From: a virus
Lineage: Duplodnaviria > Caudoviricetes
Strand: one strand, 5' to 3'
DNA length: 64,000 bases
Virus record (IMG/VR): IMGVR_UViG_3300042997_002652
Coordinates: 1-64,000 of that record
Below, piece after piece: positions 43,394 to 57,000 of the stretch. A program made the translations under genes and the position numbers. Positions within the stretch are counted from its first letter, which is position 1. Every line of letters begins with the position of its first letter. Below the pieces are notes generated by a model that saw only the letters and a program-made list of their open reading frames with translations, searched no databases and had not been told where the DNA came from.

Positions 43394-44745
43394 TATAATC
43401 CTTCAAATAATGCATTTGGTGTATCATCTGTTGGTACAAAAGTTAAATCTTTTGTTAACCATGTATCTTGATCTGTATATATTACTCTAAACTTGTGTTT
43501 ATTAGATAATACGCTTTCAAAGTCCTCTCTTGCTATTTGTGTTCTGTTGAGGTCTTTTATATAGTCTTTGTAATTTACGGTTTCGTAAGTGTTTATCTTA
43601 GCTGTATTAGTTTTTGCTTGTTTAGCTTTAAAGTCAACTAACAACTGTTCCCAGCCTTCTGCAACTTGATCATCTAACGATCTGACGTAATCCAAAGCTT
43701 CAGGAAGTTGATTAATACCAGCTAACGCCAAGATATATTCATGTGCTTGTGATAAACTTGTTTTATGATAGAATTTGCTATCAAAGTTATCTGACCAATC
43801 TTGAGTATCTAGAACTACGCAAGGCATGTGTCCTAAACATTCTAAAAAGGCAAACGGATAGTTTTCTCTTAAACTAGGCATGAAAAATATTTTAGAACTT
43901 TTAATAAAGTCTACTTTTTCACTACCCACTATACCTGCTTTTATTTGATAGTCTGTTATACCTGCTTCTTTAAAAGCTTTTTCAAACTTTTTAGCACCGT
44001 TGGAATTAGTCATTACTTTGCAGGGTAACTTACACTCTTTCATCACTTTAATATATGCTTCAGGGTTTTTACCTTCTTCCCATCTGCCGATAAACAACAC
44101 ACCCGATTTAGTTCCTGCATAGGGTTCTAGTAATTGTCTTTCGCTCATTGGCATTTTTAACAGCTTACAATTAGTAGAACCATGTTTGGTTAATTCGTTG
44201 ATATTTTTTTGACTTTGTGTTCCTATAATAATATCACTAAACTCCATGTGCTTGTTATAGAAGTTGTGATAACTTGATAGAAAAACATCACTACCTTGTG
44301 TTTCTCTAAAGATCATACTGTGTAAATGAGTATAGAACACGATTGGTATGTAGCTGTTTAGAGTCATTGCATAAGCAGCAGACATTGCTTCCTGTGTGTT
44401 ACATATTAGCATATCATAAATGTTTGTTTCAAACCCGATAATAATAGATTTGCGAAAGTTTACTATCTTTTCAAAGTTAATAGTATCACTAAATGCAAAT
44501 GTATTAGTATGGTCAGTGTATCTAAGGTTGTCTGAAGGATAAACAATGTTTGCACCTAATGACTGCAACAGTTCACTAAACTCGTTAGTAGGTTTTTTAT
44601 CTACGATGATATCAACTTTCCATTGTAGTCTTGCACACATTTCAGTAAAACCTTTAGCAAACTGGCCTATCCCGCCGTGAGGGATAAGATGCTGGTCGCT
44701 TATTAAAAATCCAATTCTTTTGTTATATGTTTTTATGTTCCCCAC
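43393..44745 (-). CDS. GT-B glycosyltransferase (GT4-like)
   Basis: PHGGIGQF; FIGRWEEGKNP; ENYPFAFLE (E-x7-E). Confidence 0.85.
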   Translation of the reverse strand: MGNIKTYNKRIGFLISDQHLIPHGGIGQFAKGFTEMCARLQWKVDIIVDKKPTNEFSELLQSLGANIVYPSDNLRYTDHTNTFAFSDTINFEKIVNFRKSIIIGFETNIYDMLICNTQEAMSAAYAMTLNSYIPIVFYTHLHSMIFRETQGSDVFLSSYHNFYNKHMEFSDIIIGTQSQKNINELTKHGSTNCKLLKMPMSERQLLEPYAGTKSGVLFIGRWEEGKNPEAYIKVMKECKLPCKVMTNSNGAKKFEKAFKEAGITDYQIKAGIVGSEKVDFIKSSKIFFMPSLRENYPFAFLECLGHMPCVVLDTQDWSDNFDSKFYHKTSLSQAHEYILALAGINQLPEALDYVRSLDDQVAEGWEQLLVDFKAKQAKTNTAKINTYETVNYKDYIKDLNRTQIAREDFESVLSNKHKFRVIYTDQDTWLTKDLTFVPTDDTPNALFEGL

Positions 44746-45578
44746 CTATTCCCAAAAAGCGGGATATGAAGTCTATCGCTGTATCTTAATCCATGTTTCA
44801 TAGCTAGTTCAGCTACCCGTTGATTGTTTAACCTATATACGCTTTCTACGCCACCGATTGGCATCAAGTAAACAGGACCTTTGAACCCTTCTTTTCTATA
44901 CAATTCAGTTACTTCTATAGCTTCCATAGCATCTTCATCGGTTGCTATAACAAACTTTAAGTAAGTGTATCCTGCATTTTGATAATCTACAACGATTTCG
45001 GGAATAATAGCATCTTCACGTTTTTCACCTGAACAACTTAATTTAGGACTTACTGAAAATGTGATTTCTCTATCCCAATGCTGAGCCGCCCACTCATTCC
45101 TTAAGTAATGTCTAAACTCTTTAAACAATGGTTGTGTGCCATTAGTTTCAAACGTAATCTCTTTTAATGATTGCATCTTTGGATGATTTAATAAGTCAGG
45201 ATAAGATCGTTGCCACCCTAACAAAGGTTCACCACCAGTAATAACCAAATGTTCGTCACGCCATTCTTTAAATGGCAACAGATTAACTATTGCTTCAGCA
45301 ATCGCATCAGTAGTAAGTTTAGGGGATAAGTGTTTAAAGTTTACATCCCAGCTTGCGTAACTGTCACAACCAGTCGTAACTAATGGCAAGTCATTATAGT
45401 TTTTATAGCTTTTAGGATGAATTAGATTTCTTTCGTTACTGATTTCACCTTTAGGCATACCAAATCCTGAACAAGTGAAGTTGCAACCAAATGTTCGTAA
45501 GAATACACTTGGTACACCAGTATATCTGCCTTCTCCTTGTACTGAATAAAATAGTTCGCTGATCTTTATATTAGACAT
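44733..45578 (-). CDS. queE: 7-carboxy-7-deazaguanine synthase (radical SAM)
   Basis: ELFYSVQGEG; FLRTFGCNFTC...GCDS; ITGGEP; ETNGT; SVSPK; RLHI. Confidence 0.93.
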   Translation of the reverse strand: MSNIKISELFYSVQGEGRYTGVPSVFLRTFGCNFTCSGFGMPKGEISNERNLIHPKSYKNYNDLPLVTTGCDSYASWDVNFKHLSPKLTTDAIAEAIVNLLPFKEWRDEHLVITGGEPLLGWQRSYPDLLNHPKMQSLKEITFETNGTQPLFKEFRHYLRNEWAAQHWDREITFSVSPKLSCSGEKREDAIIPEIVVDYQNAGYTYLKFVIATDEDAMEAIEVTELYRKEGFKGPVYLMPIGGVESVYRLNNQRVAELAMKHGLRYSDRLHIPLFGNRWGT

Positions 45579-45774
45579 TTGTATCTCGTTTAGTTTTCAG
45601 GGTCGGGTTCTCTACCGGTCTGCATGATAACTGACTATCACACAAACCGTATCTAGTAGTTTCTGTTATTATCTCATAACCGTTGTAAATTACAACCTTT
45701 TCGGTAGTTTCTGTTTCTAAAAACTTTTTAAAAGAACCAAGTGTGTCCCATTTTAACTTTTTGGGTACATACAT
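45571..45774 (-). CDS. Hypothetical protein
   Basis: 67 aa from MYVPKK; TAATG overlap with the PRTase stop. Confidence 0.6.
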   Translation of the reverse strand: MYVPKKLKWDTLGSFKKFLETETTEKVVIYNGYEIITETTRYGLCDSQLSCRPVENPTLKTKRDTNV

Positions 45775-46322
45775 TACTTCCACCAGTTTTCCCAAGAAAA
45801 CTCTATCCAAGAATCTTCTTCAGCTTTGTTAATAGACAAAGAAGTATAGGCTATATCTTTAAAGTCGCTGGCTTCATTGTTTATCAATGTAGCAAACTTT
45901 ACATTATGATTCCATACTGTATCCCAGGCATACCTTTCATTTGGCATACATGACGATTCCCAGTCTTTCTTAATCCATTTGATAGTTTCACCCGTATCAT
46001 TGATATCATCTACAATCAAGATATTCTTTCTACGTGATACGTCCCAACGTGACTTTTCAGTTTGTCTTATTTCAGTTGACAAGTAGCCAAAAGCATGTTC
46101 AGGCATCCAAGCATTACACTCTTGTTGCGCATGGTCTCTTAAACTAACTCGCAATGTTTCCATTGGCACATTATAATACTGACTGATTAAAAGTGCAGGA
46201 AGTAAACCACCTCGCGTAATACCCACAACGTAGTCAGGTTTATATCCAGACAAAGTTATTTGTCTGATGATATCCATAGTCATTTTTTGTACATCTGAGT
46301 TTGATAACGTTACTGTGTTCAT
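45774..46322 (-). CDS. Type I purine phosphoribosyltransferase (Gpt/Hpt-like)
   Basis: VVGITRGGLLPA; ILIVDDINDTGET PRPP-binding motif; WIEFSWE. Confidence 0.85.
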   Translation of the reverse strand: MNTVTLSNSDVQKMTMDIIRQITLSGYKPDYVVGITRGGLLPALLISQYYNVPMETLRVSLRDHAQQECNAWMPEHAFGYLSTEIRQTEKSRWDVSRRKNILIVDDINDTGETIKWIKKDWESSCMPNERYAWDTVWNHNVKFATLINNEASDFKDIAYTSLSINKAEEDSWIEFSWENWWK

Positions 46323-46323
46323 A

Positions 46324-46788
46324 TTATCCTTCATAAATTGCTGAGTTAGCATCATGTTCAAATACTTCTACGCTTTTAACAGATACTGTTTTGTTTAATA
46401 ATGTGCCTGCTTTTTGGCTTTCGTCTAAAATTTGCGTCATTTTCTTAAAAGCCATTTCAGCAAATCGTTCACATCCAACTGCTGGAACAATTCGCAAATC
46501 AGCTACATGTGTGGGCAAATTCTTTAACTGTTCAAGTTCGGGATCATCTTCAGCTACTAACAAAGTATGATCAAACATGTGTTCTAGCCACTGTTTAAAT
46601 TCTTTAAGCCCGCCAAAATCCATGACCCAGTTTCTTTCATCCAAGCTTTCACATTCAAAGATGATTTTAACACCTATTGAATAGCCATGAAGTAGCGAAC
46701 AATGACTATGAGTAGAACGCCACTGTCTAAAGCAACAGCTTAGTCCCCTGTCATTACCATATGTTTTTGTACTATAAAACTTACCCAT
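46324..46788 (-). CDS. queD: 6-carboxy-5,6,7,8-tetrahydropterin synthase
   Basis: HSHCSLLHGY; WVMDFGGLK; FDHT; VFEH. Confidence 0.9.
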   Translation of the reverse strand: MGKFYSTKTYGNDRGLSCCFRQWRSTHSHCSLLHGYSIGVKIIFECESLDERNWVMDFGGLKEFKQWLEHMFDHTLLVAEDDPELEQLKNLPTHVADLRIVPAVGCERFAEMAFKKMTQILDESQKAGTLLNKTVSVKSVEVFEHDANSAIYEG

Positions 46789-47245
46789 TCTTTCTCTCCG
46801 ATTCTGTTACTCGTTTACGTAAACTACTAGAGCTAAAACTATGATTTCTTTTATTATAAATGATTTCTATGTCAATTGCAAGACAATATTCTTTACCAGT
46901 GAAATCTTTGTCCATGTACTCTGCTCCCAATATACGAACATCTACTGGAAGTATTTTTAGTAAATCAAGCAAGTCTTGTTCAGTTTGGTATACCACAACT
47001 TCATCTACAAACCTACATGAACTTAATTGTATCTGTCGTTCAACGATACTTTGTACTGGTTTGTTTTTGGTGTCAGGTCTATCTATAGTTGGATCAGTTT
47101 GTAATCCAGCGATCAGGTAGTCGCAGTGATTTTTAGCTTCAGCTAACATTGCTATGTGTCCGGCATGAAGAAGGTCAAAAGCAGAAAATACTATGCCTAT
47201 CTTTTTTCCTTCTTCTTTTAATTGTCTAATTACATTAAAGATCAT
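46781..47245 (-). CDS. Cytidylyltransferase (TagD-like)
   Basis: AFDLLHAGH; RPDTKNKPVQ; FSSSSLR. Confidence 0.85.
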   Translation of the reverse strand: MIFNVIRQLKEEGKKIGIVFSAFDLLHAGHIAMLAEAKNHCDYLIAGLQTDPTIDRPDTKNKPVQSIVERQIQLSSCRFVDEVVVYQTEQDLLDLLKILPVDVRILGAEYMDKDFTGKEYCLAIDIEIIYNKRNHSFSSSSLRKRVTESERKNG

Positions 47246-47928
47246 TTCTGAGGTTTTCCCATTCGTGCAATGCTTAGAAACTCTGCTCTTGCTGCTGGAT
47301 CAGTTTTGAAACCTCCACCTAATTTACAAGTTACTGTGCTTGACCCAGTGTCTTCAACACCGCGGCTCTTAACACAATAATGCTGTGCATCTATCATAAC
47401 AGCAACATGTTCAGTTTCTAAAATATAGGAAAGTGCATGGAATACTTGTTCAGTCAGTCTTTCTTGGATCTGAGGACGCTTACTGAAATACTCAACAATC
47501 CGATTGATCTTTGAAAGACCCAGAACCTTTTCCTGGGGTACGTATGCTACAGTAGCAAGACCATCAATGATTACAAAGTGATGTTCACAATTAGATTGTA
47601 CGTTTACGTTGCGTTCAACGACCATTTCGTCATAGCCCATTTTGTTTGCAACAGTAGTACATTTTGGGAATGCATCATAGTCTAGACCCCAAAAGATTTC
47701 ATTAACATACATCTTAGCAACACGCTTGGGCGTTTCTATAAGACTGTCATCAGATAAATTTAACCCGAGGGCTTGCATAATATCGGTAAACTTAGCTTCA
47801 ATGATTTCAATTTTGTCTGTGCGACTTAGATTGTTTTCAACTTGAGGAGTTTCAACTCCCATTTTGACTAGATATTTGTGTATCTTTTGACCCAACTCTG
47901 GATCACATTTTACTTTATTAAATGACAT
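47242..47928 (-). CDS. folE: GTP cyclohydrolase I
   Basis: ETPKRVAKMY; CEHHF; RPQIQERLT; HYCVKSRG. Confidence 0.97.
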   Translation of the reverse strand: MSFNKVKCDPELGQKIHKYLVKMGVETPQVENNLSRTDKIEIIEAKFTDIMQALGLNLSDDSLIETPKRVAKMYVNEIFWGLDYDAFPKCTTVANKMGYDEMVVERNVNVQSNCEHHFVIIDGLATVAYVPQEKVLGLSKINRIVEYFSKRPQIQERLTEQVFHALSYILETEHVAVMIDAQHYCVKSRGVEDTGSSTVTCKLGGGFKTDPAARAEFLSIARMGKPQK

Positions 47929-47934
47929 TTATAT

Positions 47935-48003
47935 TCTCCTTTTGAAAGCATCTAACGTTAATGCTCAACGACCTTTCGGTATTTGCTACCTTTGTGTAGC
48001 AAA
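47935..48003 (-). promoter_or_regulatory. Three-hairpin structured leader upstream of folE
   Basis: UUUGCUAC/GUAGCAAA, ACC-GAAA-GGU and AGCAU/AUGCU stems ending next to the AAGGAG RBS. Confidence 0.45.
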
Positions 48004-48008
48004 GATAT

Positions 48009-49112
48009 TTATCTCTTGTCAAGAAACACCGAATTAAATTGTTTGTTCACTCTAACAAATGTTGTACACTTTGACAAGTCTTTTAGGCTCGTTGCACCAA
48101 CATAAGTACAAGTACTGCGAACCCCACCTAAGATATCTTGTACTGTTTTAGCTACTGGACCTTTGTATGGAACCTTAACAGTCCTACCTTCTGAACTACG
48201 ATATTCTGCTACCCCGCCATGATGTTTAGTCATAGCAGTATCGGAACTCATACCATAAAACTGAACAAACTGCTTCTTTTCTTCAAGCTTTCCCAAACGA
48301 TTACCGGTTTCAGGGTCAAAGATTATTTGATTGGTTTCGTATACTTCTTCAATTATTTCTCCGCCACCTTCTGTGTGACCAGCAAGCATACCGCCTAGCA
48401 TTACAAAATCTGCGCCACCGCCGAATGCTTTTGCTATATCACCAGGACAAGTACAACCACCATCAGCAATGATATGACCGCCCAAACCGTGTGCTGCGTC
48501 CGCGCATTCAATAATGGCTGATAGTTGAGGATACCCAACACCTGTTTGAATACGAGTAGTGCAAACACTACCAGGACCAATACCCACTTTAACAATGTCT
48601 GCTCCACGTAAAATTAACTCCTGTGTCATATCTGCGGTAACTACATTACCTGCAATAATAGTTTTAGTTGGACATAATTTTCTAACTTTAGCAACAAACT
48701 CACCAAAGTGTTCTGAATATCCGTTAGCTATATCAATACAAATAAACTGTATCATGTCAGGATACTTATAAAGAATACTTTGTAACTTTGTAAAGTCACG
48801 ATCACTAGTACCAGTACTGATAGCAGTATTGTAAGAAAAGAATTTTGAAAAATTATCTTCCAAATCTTCTAAAGAATAACTTTTAACTAAGCAAGTAATC
48901 ATATTATATCCAGCAAGCGCAACTGCTATGTCAAAAGTACCAACACCATCCATGTTTGCAGCTAGGATAGGCACACCAGTCCAATTTGCGTTACTGTGCT
49001 TGAACTGATAAGTTCTTTCCAAACTTACTTCTTTTCTGCTAGACAGTGTTGATCTTTTTGGACGGATTAGAACATCACTGAAATCTAGTTTTACTTCATT
49101 TTCAATACGCAT
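48009..49112 (-). CDS. guaC: GMP reductase
   Basis: [16 protein letters not shown]; DIANGYSE; GPGSVCTTR; ADGGC; FYGMSS; RSSEG. Confidence 0.95.
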
Positions 49113-49113
49113 A

Positions 49114-50313
49114 TTAGTACTTGTTTTCCTTTGTGTGTTTTCTATAATCTGTAGACATACGTAACCATTGCTCGCCTTTGCCTTCTATGATGTCACAAAT
49201 TCTATCAACAGTTTTGTCTGTCCAATCACTGATTTTGCCCATGTTTTTATGAGGTTTATCCAACAAAGATTCTAGTTTGCTGATCATATCTTCTATAGAC
49301 CAGGGCACATACATTCTTTCATGATCGTTAGCAAATACTTCAGGGAAAGAACGATACGCAGGGAATAAGACATTACATCCTAGTGCGTCAGCTTCACTTA
49401 CAGTATTACTAGTCCAATCTTGTAGTGCAGTATTAACTAAAACTCTAGAGTCTGTGAGTAAACGATAGTACTCATTTTTAGACAAGTTTTCATAAATCGT
49501 AAGCAACTTTTCTTCTTGCATAGCTCTAGCCATATCAACAAATTCTTGTTTGTTACTACGCAACGTTGAGCCTGTAAATATAGAAAATTCTATTTCACCA
49601 AACATTTCTTTGGGATATTTAGCATACCATTCTTTGATTAACTGAAGATAAAAGTCTGGATTCTTTTCTTGATCCCAACGTGAAGAAAAGCATACGCGCA
49701 TTTTGCGTTTATTGAATAAGATTAGGTTATGATCTACACGTTCTCTAACTTCTTGCTTATTAAATGCTAAACCAGATACGTTGTAAATGTTTGCAGTCCA
49801 TCCTGCTACTTTCATGTGTGCTACCATTTCTTCGTTTGATGCTAATACAGCACCTTTAGAAATAGAAACAATAGTGTTGACCATTTGTTCGTATTCGCTC
49901 ATCCACTTTTGCATACCCCAAACATGAACAAAGTCATCTGGATCAATAGTTTGTGCTAAACAGCGAACAAAGATACGAGGTCTTAGATTTTCTGGCACTT
50001 GAGTGATAATATATCCCAAGCTTTCAAAACCGGGCTGAAACATATCTTCAAAGTAAATTACGTCTTCATTTGTTACTTCACCCTGCTGCATCATACGAAC
50101 CAAGTTCATCATTTGACTCATAGCAAAGTAACTACGTCCGTGTGCATCTAAAACTTGACCTACTACAATTTGGTTAGAGTCATCAAGAGTTTCGCCCGGA
50201 ACATAAACTACTTTCATCCTTCTATGATCAAATACTCGCTTGTTCCATTCAGTTAATTGAAGTGTGTACCTTGCTTCGTAACTTTCAAGCCCCATGTAAA
50301 ACAGTTTTTGCAT
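49114..50313 (-). CDS. GT-B glycosyltransferase (GT4-like) within the deazaguanine cluster
   Basis: [11 protein letters not shown]; [11 protein letters not shown] (D-x7-E); YRSFPE. Confidence 0.8.
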
Positions 50314-50331: not shown

Positions 50332-50361
50332 AAAGAATGGGCTTGAAAGCCCATTCTTTTT
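50332..50361. terminator. Bidirectional-type intrinsic terminator
   Basis: aaagaatgggc-ttgaaa-gcccattcttt. Confidence 0.8.
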
Positions 50362-50664: not shown

Positions 50665-51108
50665 TCATCGTGTTAAGCAATTATATTCTATTTCACAACC
50701 GTTTTCATTATCTTCGGCAACAGAGATTACTATTTTTCTCCCAGAATAACGAGTTGCAATTACTTCGTACAAATCATCAGCAATCATTTCGCAACTTTTA
50801 TGATTAAGTTCCAAAACACTATTCTTATACTGATTTTCTAACCAGCGTTTGAATTGGATAAATTCAATATCTCGGTCATTATGGAAAACTTGAATAGCTA
50901 CCTTAAAGTAGAAAATATGTCTATGAGGCCAACCTAAAAAGCTAACATCATACTCATCTTTAGTTTTTAGATTAGGATCAGTGCTAGCATCAGGATAACA
51001 ATGAATACCTTCCTTTTGAAAAGTTACCCAAATCATACGAGTAGCCTTATTTTTGATTTGATTTCTTTGTTCTATCATAGCTATTTCTCTTTGATTAACT
51101 GCACTCAT
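50665..51108 (-). CDS. dpdL: QueD-like T-fold paralog, probable CDG decarboxylase (DpdL-like)
   Basis: LGWPHRHIF fits LxxxHRHxF; RDIEFIQFKRWL; SCEMIA; VAEDNENG. Confidence 0.65.
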   Translation of the reverse strand: MSAVNQREIAMIEQRNQIKNKATRMIWVTFQKEGIHCYPDASTDPNLKTKDEYDVSFLGWPHRHIFYFKVAIQVFHNDRDIEFIQFKRWLENQYKNSVLELNHKSCEMIADDLYEVIATRYSGRKIVISVAEDNENGCEIEYNCLTR

Positions 51109-51327: not shown

Positions 51328-52884
51328 TTAACTAATACTAAATAAATCAGGATTACCCCACTGCGGTAATACTTTCTTTTCTAACTTATCTATTACCATT
51401 TTATCATGAAGGTCATCACCCTCAAAATTATCCGTAAGTGTAGTCATGTTGTTTACTGCTTTCTTACCAGAAAAGCCCTGACTTCCTGACTGCATTTGCA
51501 TCCAAAACTTGTTATACTGTTCAATAGTATCTAAACTTTCTTGTCTAGTTTTTTTACTAAAGATTTCATCTACGATGTCATTAAAGTGTTTGGGTTCAAA
51601 CTTGTTCATAATCATTTTTGGCATAATGCCCTGCTCGTACCTACGATTAGCTTCTTGAACAGCATAGATGTGTTGATACACATTATGGGCTTGAACTAGT
51701 GTATAACTCAAAGTATCCCAACTTGTTTTAGTTTCTTTACCATGCTGTCCCAAAAAGCCATGACCCCTATAACACAAGTCCTTAATAAGCATTTTATCAG
51801 TTACAGGAGAATCAGTAAATATTTTATGGATGCCGTCAGCTAAAACTGCGTCACTAAACTTTCTATTATCTGTATCATAGTTTTTATTTTCAGCAGTTTT
51901 TTCCATTGAATAGGACCATTTCTTATCATGTTCAATAGAATTATTAAAGTAAACCAAACCTTTTGCTGCTGCGAAAAACGGGCTAGCACAGTCAAATGTA
52001 ATTTGCAAGTTTGGATTGTGATACTTTCTAACTGCACGTTGAATGTCAGTAAACAGAACCGCATACTCTAAGATACTAGTACCCAAACAGTGAATAAGAT
52101 CGTGTTTACCTGTTTCTAGTAATCCATCGTAAATCATGTTTACTATACGTTTGAGCATCAAGTGAATGTCAATTTTATTCTGACCACCAAACGCCCAACC
52201 GTTAAAGTGATTAGTTGGATATACTTTTGGATCACAGTACTTTTTCATTTCAGCATACCATTCATCACTTTGAGTATGAGTTAATCCTTGAAGTACGTTT
52301 AATAACTTACATTCGCCTGTTCTGTTATTGATAAAATACTCATTGTTGATATGAGTAGCTGCAACAGCTTGTTCTATTGTAGAAATACCGTGCTTGTCAA
52401 GTAAGTGTTTGTTTCTAAGAGTTTGAGTAGGAACGTCAAGACACATACCATAGTCCATATAAGTATCCATCCATTTTAGTACTAGTTGACGCTGCTTCAT
52501 AGCTTTAGGACAGTTAGGATCTTTCCAATCAGCTGGCCATTGCCCCTTCATAATCTGAAATCCACCTGAGTCGCCTAACATGAAAGTACCCTTTTCACGC
52601 TTTCTGATAATTGACTCACTTGGATCATCTTTAGTAATGTCTAGATTAGCGTGACCTGCAGAATACAAGCCCCATTTGTACTTGTACAAACCCTGAGTAG
52701 AGTTCAAGAAGTTAAGTGGTTCTACGTCACCATTAAACCCTTGAGGAATTCTAGCAGCATCAAAGTACTGCTCACCTTCTCGTTGTTTGCCTAATCCTGC
52801 GATAAAGAATGAAGACACTGCCGGTAAGAACAGTGCCCATTCTGGATTGTGTGCGTTAGTAAGATTATGCTGGATCTGATCCAT
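51328..52884 (-). CDS. dpdA: TGT-superfamily guanine transglycosylase (DpdA-like, possibly DpdA3 type)
   Basis: DSGGFQ, LDVP, VLQG, AFGG, HCLG, FDCAS and HN motifs in TGT order; no obvious C-terminal CxCxxC zinc site. Confidence 0.8.
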   Translation of the reverse strand: MDQIQHNLTNAHNPEWALFLPAVSSFFIAGLGKQREGEQYFDAARIPQGFNGDVEPLNFLNSTQGLYKYKWGLYSAGHANLDITKDDPSESIIRKREKGTFMLGDSGGFQIMKGQWPADWKDPNCPKAMKQRQLVLKWMDTYMDYGMCLDVPTQTLRNKHLLDKHGISTIEQAVAATHINNEYFINNRTGECKLLNVLQGLTHTQSDEWYAEMKKYCDPKVYPTNHFNGWAFGGQNKIDIHLMLKRIVNMIYDGLLETGKHDLIHCLGTSILEYAVLFTDIQRAVRKYHNPNLQITFDCASPFFAAAKGLVYFNNSIEHDKKWSYSMEKTAENKNYDTDNRKFSDAVLADGIHKIFTDSPVTDKMLIKDLCYRGHGFLGQHGKETKTSWDTLSYTLVQAHNVYQHIYAVQEANRRYEQGIMPKMIMNKFEPKHFNDIVDEIFSKKTRQESLDTIEQYNKFWMQMQSGSQGFSGKKAVNNMTTLTDNFEGDDLHDKMVIDKLEKKVLPQWGNPDLFSIS

Positions 52885-53220
52885 TATTGTCCTTTAGTAG
52901 TATTTTTACTATCTGTATCTTTTCTTCAATATCAGCTTTTTGTTTTAAAAGATCAGCAAAAGTGGGATTGTCTTTTAATTTTTCTATTGCTTTTTCTTCT
53001 GCCATTTTTTACTGGCCCAGTCCATAATCATTCGTGTGTTATAGTCAATATCTATATTAACTGTAGATGATATTTTATACCAAGACGAACCATCGTAAAC
53101 TTCCATATCTGTCCCGTTATATCTAACCATGCCAGCACTATGATTATTCAAACTTACATACGGGCCTGAAGAGCCGCCAGTACTTAATAATCCCAAACCT
53201 GTTGCTATCTTTGTAATCAT
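52865..53220 (-). pseudogene. Hypothetical gene apparently split by a -1 frameshift in an A6 run near 53005
   Basis: Frame 1 stops at WASKKWQKKKQ*; the -1 frame continues MAEEKAIEKLKDNPTFADLL...KILLKDNNGSDPA*. Confidence 0.5.
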
Positions 53221-53951
53221 TTTGACATTGCAGGAAGAATGTAAGAGTACACAGCTAAGCCTGAATCTACTGTGATTTCAGCAGCACCCTGATCAGAGAT
53301 TTTAACTGTTTTATCGCCGGGCAAGTCCATGATAGAAAGAAACACTTTTACAGGCCATTGCCAAGCTTTGGTCATAGTACCAGTTACACCTGCATGAAAC
53401 ACAAAGTTACCTGAGTGAGTAGAAGGATCACCAAAATAAATTTTCAAGTTTCCGCTTTCTGTTTTAGTTGAAAACGTTACTTCTTCACTGTTAGCAGAAG
53501 CTTGCATTTTCAAACGCATAATACCAGCTACTGTGGGTTCAAATTCTACGTTCCAAGCTGCACCCTTAAATGTAACAGTTTTTACTTTGCTTTCTACAAT
53601 TTCTTTAGACATAAGTCTGTAATCATTTACAAAGTCGTTATTCTTTGTAGCAAAGTGAATAGTAGTAGGAACGTCTTCACTATCTCTTGTTTCTCTAACA
53701 ACACTGATAGAAGCATTTTCGTCATACTCAGCTTCAAAACCTAAAATAGTTTTAAGCTTGCCTAGATTGGGCATACCAAAAGTACCAATAGCATCAGCGA
53801 TTGGATGCTTAAAAGTGCCACTGATAATAACGGTCTTATCTTCTGCCATTGCTTCGATCTTAGTAACTTGATCAGTGCCTGTTACTTTTACTAACTCCAC
53901 TACTCCCAAGCCATGTGTATGCTGGATCAAATCTTGTAAAAAATCTTTCAT
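53217..53951 (-). CDS. Putative DNA polymerase sliding clamp/processivity factor
   Basis: 244 aa, two-domain alpha/beta pattern, immediately downstream of polB; assignment rests on size and position. Confidence 0.5.
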   Translation of the reverse strand: MKDFLQDLIQHTHGLGVVELVKVTGTDQVTKIEAMAEDKTVIISGTFKHPIADAIGTFGMPNLGKLKTILGFEAEYDENASISVVRETRDSEDVPTTIHFATKNNDFVNDYRLMSKEIVESKVKTVTFKGAAWNVEFEPTVAGIMRLKMQASANSEEVTFSTKTESGNLKIYFGDPSTHSGNFVFHAGVTGTMTKAWQWPVKVFLSIMDLPGDKTVKISDQGAAEITVDSGLAVYSYILPAMSK

Positions 53952-54032: not shown

Positions 54033-56735
54033 TCAACCAAAAGAAAACAAACTATCAAATGTAGTATTTGTGTCTGTGTTACTTTTCAAGTCCCAGTTTA
54101 GTACACCTAATAGGTTTTCAATCTTTTTATCTACTAGTGTAGTTTCCATTAATGAGTCATCAAACGGTAATTGTTTGAACCAATCTGGAAGTCTAAGCTC
54201 ATCTGTAGGATAAGCAATGGAAGTGAATCCTAACGGATTGGTTTTAAGCTTACACACAACAACTTTCATACCATCTAAAATAGTCATAGAATAATTGTCG
54301 CTATGTGCCTTTTTAAGAAAGTTCCAATTGATAGCTGCACGAACATGCCCCGGCATAGTAGCCTTACCTTTTTTACTTCTAGCTTCTAGTTCGCCGTAAA
54401 AAGTAAGCTTGTTTACTGACTTAGGAGAACCCTTAGTCCAACTAGGCTGTTCGGATAGTTCTCGCTTAAAATCTTTGATACGTTCTATAATATCTTCTTT
54501 GGACTTATTGCTTAGAACCATAGTAAGAACGTCTAGTAAAAACTTTTGAATATATTTAGGCGTATCTGATCTTTTTAGTTCAAGACCCATAGCTTTAATA
54601 TCACCCGTTTTACCATTTACGTCTTTACGCTTGCCTTCTTTGTCATAGATATTTACCGCATAACGCTTTTTCTTGATAAACAAGCCCACGTCACCTATGA
54701 TTTCTCTGCCACCTTTAATGATAGCACCGTTCTTTCTTGGACAATGACATGCACGTTCCATGAACCCGGGAAAGCTATCGTTAACTTGATCAGCAATATT
54801 ATCATATAATTGGACAACTAGTTCTTTGTTCCATTCCATCTTACCTGCGTTAACTTCTTGCTCAATAATAGGCCAAGCTGAAAAATAACCTGAGTCGGTA
54901 TCAGAGTATATCATAGATTCGCCTTCATGATTGTAAGCACCTGTTATAATCTCATTGATCTGAGAATTCATGTGCTTAACAATTTGTCTACCAGTTAAAG
55001 TAACTGACTGACCCAATCGTTTGTCATAGAACCTACAGTGTTCATTTAAGAGTGCACCATAAGCAGAGTTAAGCAAAATCTTTCTTACCAACTGTCGCTT
55101 GTCATAATACTCTTTATCTGTTTCAGTAGTAGCTTCTTTTAGTTTTTTCTGCAAGTCTTTACGTTCAGCATACCAACGAGTAAGTAGACCGGGAATAACA
55201 CCTTCTTGATCACTTCTAAATATAGTACCATTAGCTGATAACATATACGGACTGTGTGAATCAAAAATCATTTTCCATATTTCAGCAGCAGACATTTCTT
55301 GTGATCTACCATCTTCAAAGTCAACAATAAGCATTGTGCCGCGTTCTTGATTCATTACTGAAGTATATTCTAGTGAACCAAACAATCCTTCCCAAAGCAA
55401 TGAACTCATGTCAAGTTCATCATCTTCGTCATAGTTTCGCTTTTCTTTAGCTAGTTCCATTGCTCTATCGTGTAAGAACTTTTCAGTATGTGTTTGTCTA
55501 ATTTGCCCTACAATTGTTTCTGGGGCCATGTTCAAAGCACGAATTGTTGAAGGATACAGTGAGTTAATATCTATAGCTCCCACCCAGTAATGCAATCCTT
55601 TCTTTGGTTGGGCAACATAAGCACCAGCAGCAGCCATTTCGCCTGAATGACCTCTTTGCTTATCTGGCACGATAAGACCTCTAGCATGTGCTTCATTATA
55701 GATAGCCATTTCAATCATAGCTACTGAACCCATTACTGTTGGTAACAATACTGTATTTTCGTGTGCTAGTTGATTAGCCAACTCTAAGAATTTTAGCTTG
55801 TTGTGAATCTTTACTACAAGCATAGTGTCTTGGCGGTTATATCTAATGAATTCTTTGAAGTCACGATTGTATAGTTGATCTAGTGTGCCTTCATATGGAG
55901 TTTTTGTTTCACCAACTTCCATTTCCCCGATAGCATCTAACGAGTAACTGTGTCTGGATTCATAGTTGTACTTTTTATACAACTGAAGATAGTCCATATG
56001 AATTCTACCTACTAAGTCATATGTTTGTTCTTCTTTACCAAATCGTTCGTAAGTTCTTGGTTTAGGTAATTGCCCCATTAAACAGAACTTTCTAGTATCA
56101 TCTTTACTCATGATCTTAGTTACTCTGTTTACTATATATGGAATATCAAATCCTTCTGAGTTCCATCCTGTTAACACATCAGCATCTTCAATTATTTGAA
56201 AGAAAGTTTCAAACATTTCTATTTCACTACGAAACAAAAAAGTGTTTGGAAATTCTGCTACTAGCTCTTGTGCTGTTTCGTCTGTTATGTGTTTAGGTGG
56301 AATAGCCAAACATATAAGTTGATCTAACCAATCCAAGTACAATGCAATTGCTGTCACTGGACTAAAAGGATCACTAGTAGGCGCGTATCCGCGTTCTGGG
56401 GAAAAATCAACCTCAATGTCAAAAAACGCTGTGTGAAGTTTTGGAGCTTCTACACCTAAATAGTTGTCAGATAAACATCTAAAAACAGTGTTAACATCGC
56501 TTTCAAATAACTTCTTACCCGAGTGTATACGCTTTTCTTTTTCAAATTCGCTTTTCTTTCTAGTAGAAAACCTACTTAAAGAGTCACGATAGATAGAACG
56601 ATACTTGCCTTTAGAGTCGGGATAATAAAATACATAGTTAGCAGGGAACTCCTGATAGCTTCTAGTGCCATCAGAAGTTCTTTCTATCACATGTATGCGA
56701 TCATTTTTTGCATCATTGATTGCATCAACATACAT
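54033..56735 (-). CDS. Family B DNA polymerase (T4 gp43-like)
   Basis: Exo FDIEVD, GWNSEGFDIPY, YNRQD; pol DINSLYPS, KILLNSAYG, YSDTDS, KKRYA; probable start MYVDA at 56735. Confidence 0.97.
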   Translation of the reverse strand: MYVDAINDAKNDRIHVIERTSDGTRSYQEFPANYVFYYPDSKGKYRSIYRDSLSRFSTRKKSEFEKEKRIHSGKKLFESDVNTVFRCLSDNYLGVEAPKLHTAFFDIEVDFSPERGYAPTSDPFSPVTAIALYLDWLDQLICLAIPPKHITDETAQELVAEFPNTFLFRSEIEMFETFFQIIEDADVLTGWNSEGFDIPYIVNRVTKIMSKDDTRKFCLMGQLPKPRTYERFGKEEQTYDLVGRIHMDYLQLYKKYNYESRHSYSLDAIGEMEVGETKTPYEGTLDQLYNRDFKEFIRYNRQDTMLVVKIHNKLKFLELANQLAHENTVLLPTVMGSVAMIEMAIYNEAHARGLIVPDKQRGHSGEMAAAGAYVAQPKKGLHYWVGAIDINSLYPSTIRALNMAPETIVGQIRQTHTEKFLHDRAMELAKEKRNYDEDDELDMSSLLWEGLFGSLEYTSVMNQERGTMLIVDFEDGRSQEMSAAEIWKMIFDSHSPYMLSANGTIFRSDQEGVIPGLLTRWYAERKDLQKKLKEATTETDKEYYDKRQLVRKILLNSAYGALLNEHCRFYDKRLGQSVTLTGRQIVKHMNSQINEIITGAYNHEGESMIYSDTDSGYFSAWPIIEQEVNAGKMEWNKELVVQLYDNIADQVNDSFPGFMERACHCPRKNGAIIKGGREIIGDVGLFIKKKRYAVNIYDKEGKRKDVNGKTGDIKAMGLELKRSDTPKYIQKFLLDVLTMVLSNKSKEDIIERIKDFKRELSEQPSWTKGSPKSVNKLTFYGELEARSKKGKATMPGHVRAAINWNFLKKAHSDNYSMTILDGMKVVVCKLKTNPLGFTSIAYPTDELRLPDWFKQLPFDDSLMETTLVDKKIENLLGVLNWDLKSNTDTNTTFDSLFSFG

Positions 56736-56736
56736 A

Positions 56737-57000
56737 TTACTGGACCCTGCCAACAGTCTCCAGAATCGTGTTTAAATCTTCATGATCTTGATTAGTTTGT
56801 GTAAGTGATGACTTGTATGCAGTCTTTACTGCCCGTTTTAGTACGGATGGCTTGATATCTAGCTCTTCTGCAATAGCTTTTATCGTATCCGATAATCCGC
56901 CGTTAAGCGTTTCTATCTCATTTAATACTGAAAGACCCTCATTTATAATCTGGGTCAATTTAGTTTTTTCGTCTTGATTAAATACTCTACCGTTTGACAT
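56737..57000 (-). CDS. GapR/T4 DsbA-like dsDNA-binding protein
   Basis: LSDTIKAIAEELDIKPSVLKRAVKTAYK. Confidence 0.55.
   Translation of the reverse strand: MSNGRVFNQDEKTKLTQIINEGLSVLNEIETLNGGLSDTIKAIAEELDIKPSVLKRAVKTAYKSSLTQTNQDHEDLNTILETVGRVQ

Follow-up and report, generated by a model that had tools for sequence, protein, structure and literature searches.

Possible guanine recycling by a phosphoribosyltransferase and a GMP reductase embedded in a phage 7-deazaguanine cluster

In a Caudoviricetes phage known from a 267-kb record (IMG/VR IMGVR_UViG_3300042997_002652; estimated to be ~76% complete, ~36% G+C), two enzymes of purine nucleotide metabolism are embedded in a 7-deazaguanine cluster: a Gpt-like type I phosphoribosyltransferase (PRT; 45774..46361, minus strand; PF00156 Pribosyltran, 46.8 bits) and GuaC, a GMP reductase of type 1 (48009..49112, minus strand). 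Positions are those of the window, the first 64 kb of the record. On balance we favour the view that the PRT is a guanine sink and recycler that feeds GMP and GTP, and that GuaC takes GMP on to IMP. Here we describe the enzyme families, catalytic residues, synteny and presence/absence pattern of this pair. The initial annotation had placed a type I PRT between queE and queD and guaC directly upstream of folE; open reading frame (ORF) coordinates, with Pfam and NCBIfam matches, bear out both placements exactly, with an 80-nt gap between guaC and folE. The minus-strand order is family B DNA polymerase (PolB), a 244-aa protein, a DpdA-like and a DpdL-like protein, a GT1-family glycosyltransferase (GT1), GuaC, FolE, a small nucleotidyltransferase, QueD, the PRT, a 79-aa ORF, QueE, a second GT1 and a GalE-like epimerase, with PolB at the head of the conserved neighbourhood.

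The placement of the PRT in the cluster is not chance, because 62 of the 66 viral contigs recovered through the PRT alone have FolE, QueD or QueE within 10 kb, and all 40 complete clusters recovered through another clade's DpdA-like protein, an unbiased sample, contain a PRT gene (GuaC occurs in 15 of these 40). The usual order on PRT contigs is PolB, the 244-aa gene, the DpdA-like and DpdL-like genes, and then the PRT with FolE and QueE. Recovery through the window's own DpdA-like family gave 21 complete clusters, 7 with and 14 without the PRT; all 14 PRT-less clusters in the window's subclade are also without GuaC, which is present in three of the seven PRT-bearing ones. These 14 sister clusters retain the DpdA-like and DpdL-like genes, FolE, QueD and QueE, and the PRT is found nowhere in the sequence of the PRT-less records, which run up to 171 kb. 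Mapped on a DpdA-like tree of 47 rows, the four combinations are unevenly filled (PRT alone, 24; PRT and GuaC, 9; neither, 14; GuaC alone, 0), and PRT loss is restricted to the window's 19-row clade. No deazaguanine cluster examined contains GuaC without the PRT, and most PRT-bearing clusters are without GuaC. As a measure of co-variation, this pattern yields too few pairs for an independent-pairs sign test, and recombined cassette segments could mimic joint loss. In DpdL-type clusters the PRT is an ancestral and nearly universal component, which GuaC has often joined. Among 50,697 phage records, tblastn with the PRT matched only Synechococcus phage BUCT-ZZ01 (gene row QueE, PRT, unknown gene, QueD, FolE), the phiST group and PA5oct, each of which also has a DpdL-like gene.

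Examination of the PRT-less, GuaC-less sisters revealed other cargo between the nucleotidyltransferase/QueD genes and QueE (L102:18484-19284, L106:11853-13203 and L152:18073-19887), namely a P-loop kinase with a nucleotidyltransferase tail, a class II aldolase, a BAX-inhibitor membrane protein, a GNAT protein and a DAO-type FAD oxidoreductase. The deazaguanine operon is a hot spot for accessory genes. In a jumbo-phage fragment (L026:5650-15308), PRT and GuaC stand in an island with NifU-like, GGACT, ferredoxin-reductase-like and NAD synthase (NadE) genes, and no Que gene is present in that 62.6-kb record.

The listed PRT reading frame begins at a TTG (46361), and an ATG at 46322 lies one base past the queD stop with AAGGA five bases upstream of it; this ATG is the likely true start, giving a protein of 182 aa. 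The family comprises 2,427 database proteins at E <= 0.001 and is nearly missing from 185,579 one-per-species prokaryote genomes, where it appears in only four contigs of metagenome-assembled genomes. Its profile matches three solved structures along the whole length: Pyrococcus horikoshii 1vdm (1e-26), Sulfolobus solfataricus GpT-2, 4z1o (2e-22), and Escherichia coli XGPRT (3e-14). Across 117 distinct phage sequences (108-109 informative at the columns of the motif for phosphoribosyl pyrophosphate (PRPP), the rest being gaps), R50 of the RGG pyrophosphate loop is invariant and G51-G52 invariant or nearly so, and the PRPP motif is invariant at D118, D119, D122, T/S123 and G124; D122 is the counterpart of the Asp through which 6-oxopurine PRTs contact N7 of the purine. 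Also invariant are the C-terminal E191 and W185, which aligns with the Trp of WIEQPWD in 1a98 and of WIVFPWEE in 1vdm and is the aromatic stacking residue of the C-terminal hood, the counterpart of Gpt W134. A search for PRT-FolE fusions among longer proteins gave only two long forms, both unrelated.

By sequence, GuaC is a canonical GMP reductase. It scores 559.9 bits against NF003470 and 536 bits against TIGR01305 (equivalog cut-offs 397 and 492 bits), is ~65% identical to human GMPR (E about 1e-136 for GMPR1 and GMPR2; 6e-137 for GMPR1, 2ble), and in alignment to the two human enzymes keeps the catalytic Cys and Thr (GPGSVCTTR), the SEG Glu and the phosphate-binding loops. Relative to human and bacterial GMP reductase it carries a 21-residue insertion at residues ~257-278, common to a group of phage GuaC proteins of 354-375 aa and missing from a group of 347-352 aa. 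Database matches number in the thousands, the best 120 listed being 66-96% identical, and because matches sit on contigs of 290-360 kb (several of those listed do), GuaC is an established jumbo-phage gene. Stand-alone copies, 40-46% identical, occur in Xanthomonas phage XacN1, Xoo-sp13, Stenotrophomonas phages and Caulobacter phage Cr30, with no Que genes annotated nearby (for example in XacN1 and Cr30). Around the deazaguanine cluster GuaC takes at least five different positions: in the window it begins directly at the stop of the glycosyltransferase gene upstream, and in contigs L054, L063 and L064 guaC and the start of the PRT gene overlap. In the GuaC tree one bacterial sequence branches, with weak support, between two phage groups, which hints that phages recruited GuaC repeatedly.

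The DpdA-like protein (51328..52884, minus strand; 518 aa) has no sequence match in Pfam (PF01702 TGT included), PHROG or the PDB. Its AlphaFold2 model (pLDDT 80.5, pTM 0.83) retrieved in Foldseek a top 50 made up entirely of bacterial tRNA-guanine transglycosylases (TGT; best E 2e-7), and D105, S106, G107, G108 and Q110 of its DSGGFQ motif are invariant. The predicted fold and the DSGG(F/Y)Q motif, both present, place it in the TGT superfamily. Every record large enough to judge has this protein, even where the PRT is far away, and no PRT-bearing system among the records long enough to judge is without a transglycosylase. A 231-aa PP-loop ATPase is encoded on the plus strand ~190 kb past the cluster (G000:C1:239415-240110; L001:1024-1719). 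Its C-terminus scores 39 bits against Pfam QueC, over profile positions 145-209 only, and as it reaches only 30 bits where the equivalog model requires 150, it was not accepted as QueC; it may be a divergent QueC-like protein or another PP-loop enzyme, and it matters for the question whether this phage truly lacks QueC.

What the enzymes act on, which way flux runs and what the phage gains are inferred as follows. FolE, QueD and QueE would produce 7-carboxy-7-deazaguanine (CDG), and the DpdL-like protein, the proposed decarboxylase, would complete a QueC-independent synthesis of 7-deazaguanine, which the DpdA-like enzyme would swap for guanine in replicated DNA, freeing one guanine per exchange. 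Joining the released guanine to PRPP to form GMP, the PRT would remove a base that is poorly soluble and a competitor of 7-deazaguanine at the exchange enzyme, and would return it to the GTP pool, the source of the FolE substrate. NADPH-dependent GuaC would pass part of this GMP to IMP, able to feed adenine nucleotides, a flow that would suit a ~36% G+C genome. From length, completeness and G+C we estimate that a ~350-kb genome frees ~1.3e5 guanines if every G is swapped, equivalent to millimolar guanine per burst; guanine is soluble only to micromolar levels. Two features mark PRT and GuaC as helpers and not the insertion route: no record large enough to judge lacks the exchange enzyme, and both genes can be missing from clusters that are otherwise whole. 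The initial annotation had offered two roles for the pair, salvage of guanine with rebalancing of the pools, or steering of the pools towards a modified nucleotide. The first fits best, given a canonical GuaC, an N7-directed Asp that is kept, a TGT-fold enzyme that is always present and a PRT and GuaC that are dispensable; the second is disfavoured, on evidence set out below.

Several observations weigh against guanine recycling. The position of Gpt K115, a Lys hydrogen-bonded to the purine 6-oxo group (O6), is Asn162 in 99 of 108 phage PRTs and Lys in nine, phiST included; 1vdm, 4z1o and 1a98 all have Lys there. In 97 of 101 sequences Arg75 takes the place of the loop Tyr, and the Asp next to it is invariant; at both sites the family departs from all three solved relatives, and these substitutions may have altered its specificity. 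Because it scores only 35.1 bits against the XPRT equivalog NF006613 (cut-off 138), the PRT is to be called a Gpt relative and not a Gpt equivalog, a member of a phage-specific Gpt/archaeal-GpT-like family; against the HGPRT equivalog TIGR01203 it reaches 21.6 bits (cut-off 150). The activity of the PRT on guanine is a prediction from family and residues. With recycling there would be no net guanine surplus, and the need for GuaC is not self-evident. Full replacement by this type of DpdA has never been reconstituted (PMC10516641). Finally, TubE, the PRT of the tubercidin pathway and an enzyme that acts on CDG, is clustered with FolE, QueD, QueE and a GMP reductase homologue.

That PRT and GuaC are instead generic auxiliary genes, which boost and rebalance host-scavenged purines from a cargo hot spot and are not specifically connected with the guanine that base exchange sets free, seems unlikely to us. 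GuaC is indeed auxiliary in several large phages without Que genes annotated nearby, the PRT-less sisters bear unrelated cargo (aldolase, BAX inhibitor, FAD oxidoreductase, kinase) in the same slots, and in L026 the pair keeps company with GGACT, FNR-like, NadE and NifU genes and no Que gene over 62.6 kb. Yet outside phages with DpdL-type clusters the PRT family is essentially missing; it lies inside the operon, occurs in 40 of 40 clusters of one clade, and has a DpdA-like gene in the same record wherever the record is long enough.

Doubtful, too, is a reading in which the PRT resembles TubE and ribosylates CDG or 7-deazaguanine, so that these widespread jumbo phages of aquatic habitats make 7-deazapurine nucleotides. 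Together with GuaC it would then yield 7-deaza-IMP and 7-deaza-AMP, as in tubercidin biosynthesis, and the nucleotides would serve for pre-replicative incorporation or as an antimetabolite directed at the host. The Streptomyces clusters for tubercidin and toyocamycin (TubC/A/B/E/D and ToyD/B/C/H/E) include TubE, a Gpt-like PRT of ~190 aa that ribosylates CDG and was aligned by its authors to 4Z1O, its closest solved structure, and TubD, a GMP reductase homologue that also reduces plain GMP (PMC6112128).

TubE is the precedent for a Gpt-like PRT acting on CDG on which a fully pre-replicative route would draw, the second of the roles in the initial annotation. The PRT would join PRPP to 7-deazaguanine or CDG, the product would become 7-deaza-dGTP through kinases of the host and the ribonucleotide reductase of the phage, GuaC would deplete GMP, and PolB would incorporate the analogue. 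The PRT is translationally coupled to queD, its family shows the Lys-to-Asn and Tyr-to-Arg substitutions, the phage encodes its own ribonucleotide reductase and PolB, an ADG nucleoside is reported in CP220-infected cells and DpdA3 activity could not be demonstrated (PMC10516641), all of which speaks for such a route. We nevertheless hold it improbable. Clusters of 14 close relatives keep everything except PRT and GuaC, a TGT-fold enzyme bearing DSGGFQ is never missing, the PRT invariably has the N7-directed Asp, and a GuaC draining GMP would compete with FolE for guanine nucleotides. Expected partners are also missing: Pfam models for guanylate kinase (PF00625) and PurA/PurZ (PF00709) found no match in the 267-kb, ~76%-complete record, a search in which HD-type dGTPases were not covered, and the sole MazG (94271-94480) lies 45 kb from the cluster.

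Least probable, and in our judgement very unlikely, is a tubercidin-like branch in which the PRT makes a 7-deazaguanine ribonucleotide, the DpdL-like protein acts as the TubF decarboxylase and GuaC, as TubD, takes 7-deaza-GMP to 7-deaza-IMP, giving 7-deazahypoxanthine or 7-deazaadenine nucleotides for DNA or as a toxic metabolite: the five enzyme types of the tub cluster are all there, GuaC never occurs without the PRT, and GMP reduction by TubD makes a canonical-looking GuaC compatible with a TubD-like role, but GuaC is canonical by sequence, stands alone in the unrelated phages XacN1 and Cr30 and is missing from most PRT-bearing clusters, and the record has no PurA match and the cluster no Nudix- or HAD-type partner. 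We also know of no report of 7-deazaadenine in natural DNA. Taken jointly, the pre-replicative and tubercidin-like readings retain a small but appreciable probability.

The remaining genes of the neighbourhood all lie on the minus strand. FolE, GTP cyclohydrolase I (47242..47928), passes its family cut-off clearly (NF006824, 316.5 bits versus 202), and QueD (46324..46788) belongs to the 6-carboxytetrahydropterin synthase family (PTPS; PF01242, 69.2 bits). The QueE-like radical SAM enzyme, a putative CDG synthase (44733..45578), scores under cut-off in both NCBIfam models (TIGR03365, 57 bits; TIGR04322, 47 bits) and is syntenic with the annotated QueE of BUCT-ZZ01 and PA5oct. Between FolE and QueD lies the small nucleotidyltransferase (46781..47245), cytidylyltransferase-like and akin to RfaE domain II (PF01467, 46.1 bits; phrog_7878; 81.6 bits against TIGR02199, under its cut-off). 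The 79-aa ORF (45571..45810), which overlaps the last part of the PRT gene and the first part of queE, is kept in the closest contigs only and had no family match in Pfam or PHROG scans. Directly upstream of guaC is a GT-B glycosyltransferase of the GT1 family (49114..50313; PF00534, 26.1 bits), followed by the DpdL-like protein, the proposed CDG decarboxylase (50665..51108; phrog_17812), which in tblastn matches Cellulophaga phage phiST (E 8e-7) and PA5oct (59% identity). PolB occupies 54033..56753 (PF00136, 139.7 bits; PF03104, 79.7 bits).

The 244-aa protein (53217-53951) always stands between PolB and the DpdA-like gene and is strongly conserved (67% mean column identity, 55 invariant columns). 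It was considered and rejected as a nucleotide enzyme: phrog_12062 is its one match, with none in the PDB or Pfam, and mass spectrometry shows the PA5oct homologue to be a virion protein. A scan for terminator-like sites marked a hairpin at 47982..48003 (no strand assigned), in the 80-nt guaC-folE gap; such sites are no more numerous in the region than in shuffled sequence. Between a 75-aa ORF and the gene for the glycosyltransferase lies a perfect 12-bp palindromic hairpin (50332-50359), possibly a terminator that acts in both directions and divides the cluster into transcription units.

A syntenic cluster occurs in the cultured Pseudomonas phage PA5oct (L247, MK797984.1 221902-228313). Its set comprises the 244-aa homologue, DpdA-like, GT-like, DpdL-like and PRT-like proteins and QueE, all but QueE annotated as hypothetical or structural. 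The PRT-like protein, EST35_0321, annotated as hypothetical, is divergent: it has 144 aa, KGG in place of RGG, and no C-terminal Trp hood. The PA5oct PolB gene is split by a homing endonuclease.

If the PRT does recycle guanine, it would add a step to a modification so far described as synthesis of the base followed by transglycosylation by DpdA (PMC10516641). The papers searched make no mention of the fate of the displaced guanine; PMC10516641 contains no mention of a PRT or a GMP reductase, and our literature searches found no paper that links PRT or GuaC to phage deazaguanine. The PRT would close a stoichiometric loop from guanine through GTP to deazaguanine, and it could explain how some phages replace every guanine, the free base being poorly soluble and a competitor of the one coming in. 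Cui et al. 2023 assign all phage deazaguanines to post-replicative insertion (PMC10516641), and a nucleotide-level route, kept open by the tub-like gene set, would if true overturn that view. As PA5oct is in culture and has a syntenic cluster, the question is directly testable. New here are the linkage to GuaC, the presence/absence pattern, the two family-specific substitutions in the PRT and PA5oct as a test system.

Set against known systems, the window resembles the dZ (2-aminoadenine) phages with PurZ, DatZ and MazZ only in concept, by having nucleotide-pool enzymes next to replication genes; unlike them it yielded no PurZ/PurA homologue and, in a search that did not extend to HD-type enzymes, no hydrolase specific for dGTP, and it has a base-exchange enzyme instead. 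Phages XacN1, Cr30 and those of Stenotrophomonas carry the same type of GuaC as a stand-alone gene, whereas the GuaC of the window is tied to the deazaguanine cluster, always with the PRT. The dDG system of Cellulophaga phage phiST consists of FolE, QueD, QueE, DpdL and DpdA3 (PMC10516641); it shares with the window the QueC-independent pathway, a DpdL homologue and a related PRT (gp064), but in phiST the PRT adjoins RNase H and ribonucleotide reductase, outside the que operon.

The tub cluster has five enzyme types in common with the phage cluster: GTP cyclohydrolase I, QueD, QueE, a small PRT and a GMP reductase homologue. The phage PRT and TubE are connected indirectly, through a common near structure, 4Z1O, the second-best solved relative of the phage protein. 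Unlike tub, the phage cluster adds a DNA transglycosylase of TGT fold, has a DpdL-like protein in place of the UbiD decarboxylase, includes no Nudix or HAD phosphatase, and can dispense with PRT and GuaC, as its sister clusters do. Compared with E. coli XGPRT (Gpt; PDB 1A95-1A98), 1VDM and 4Z1O, finally, the phage PRT is of similar size (about 150-180 aa) and shares the RGG loop, the acidic PRPP motif with its third Asp and the DTG-x-T loop for the 5'-phosphate, as well as a C-terminal hood, W-x-x-x-P-W-(E/D), that contains the stacking Trp. It differs from them in having Asn for the O6 Lys and Arg for the loop Tyr, with two extra insertions in the window's protein, and in being a phage-specific enzyme embedded in a DNA-modification operon.

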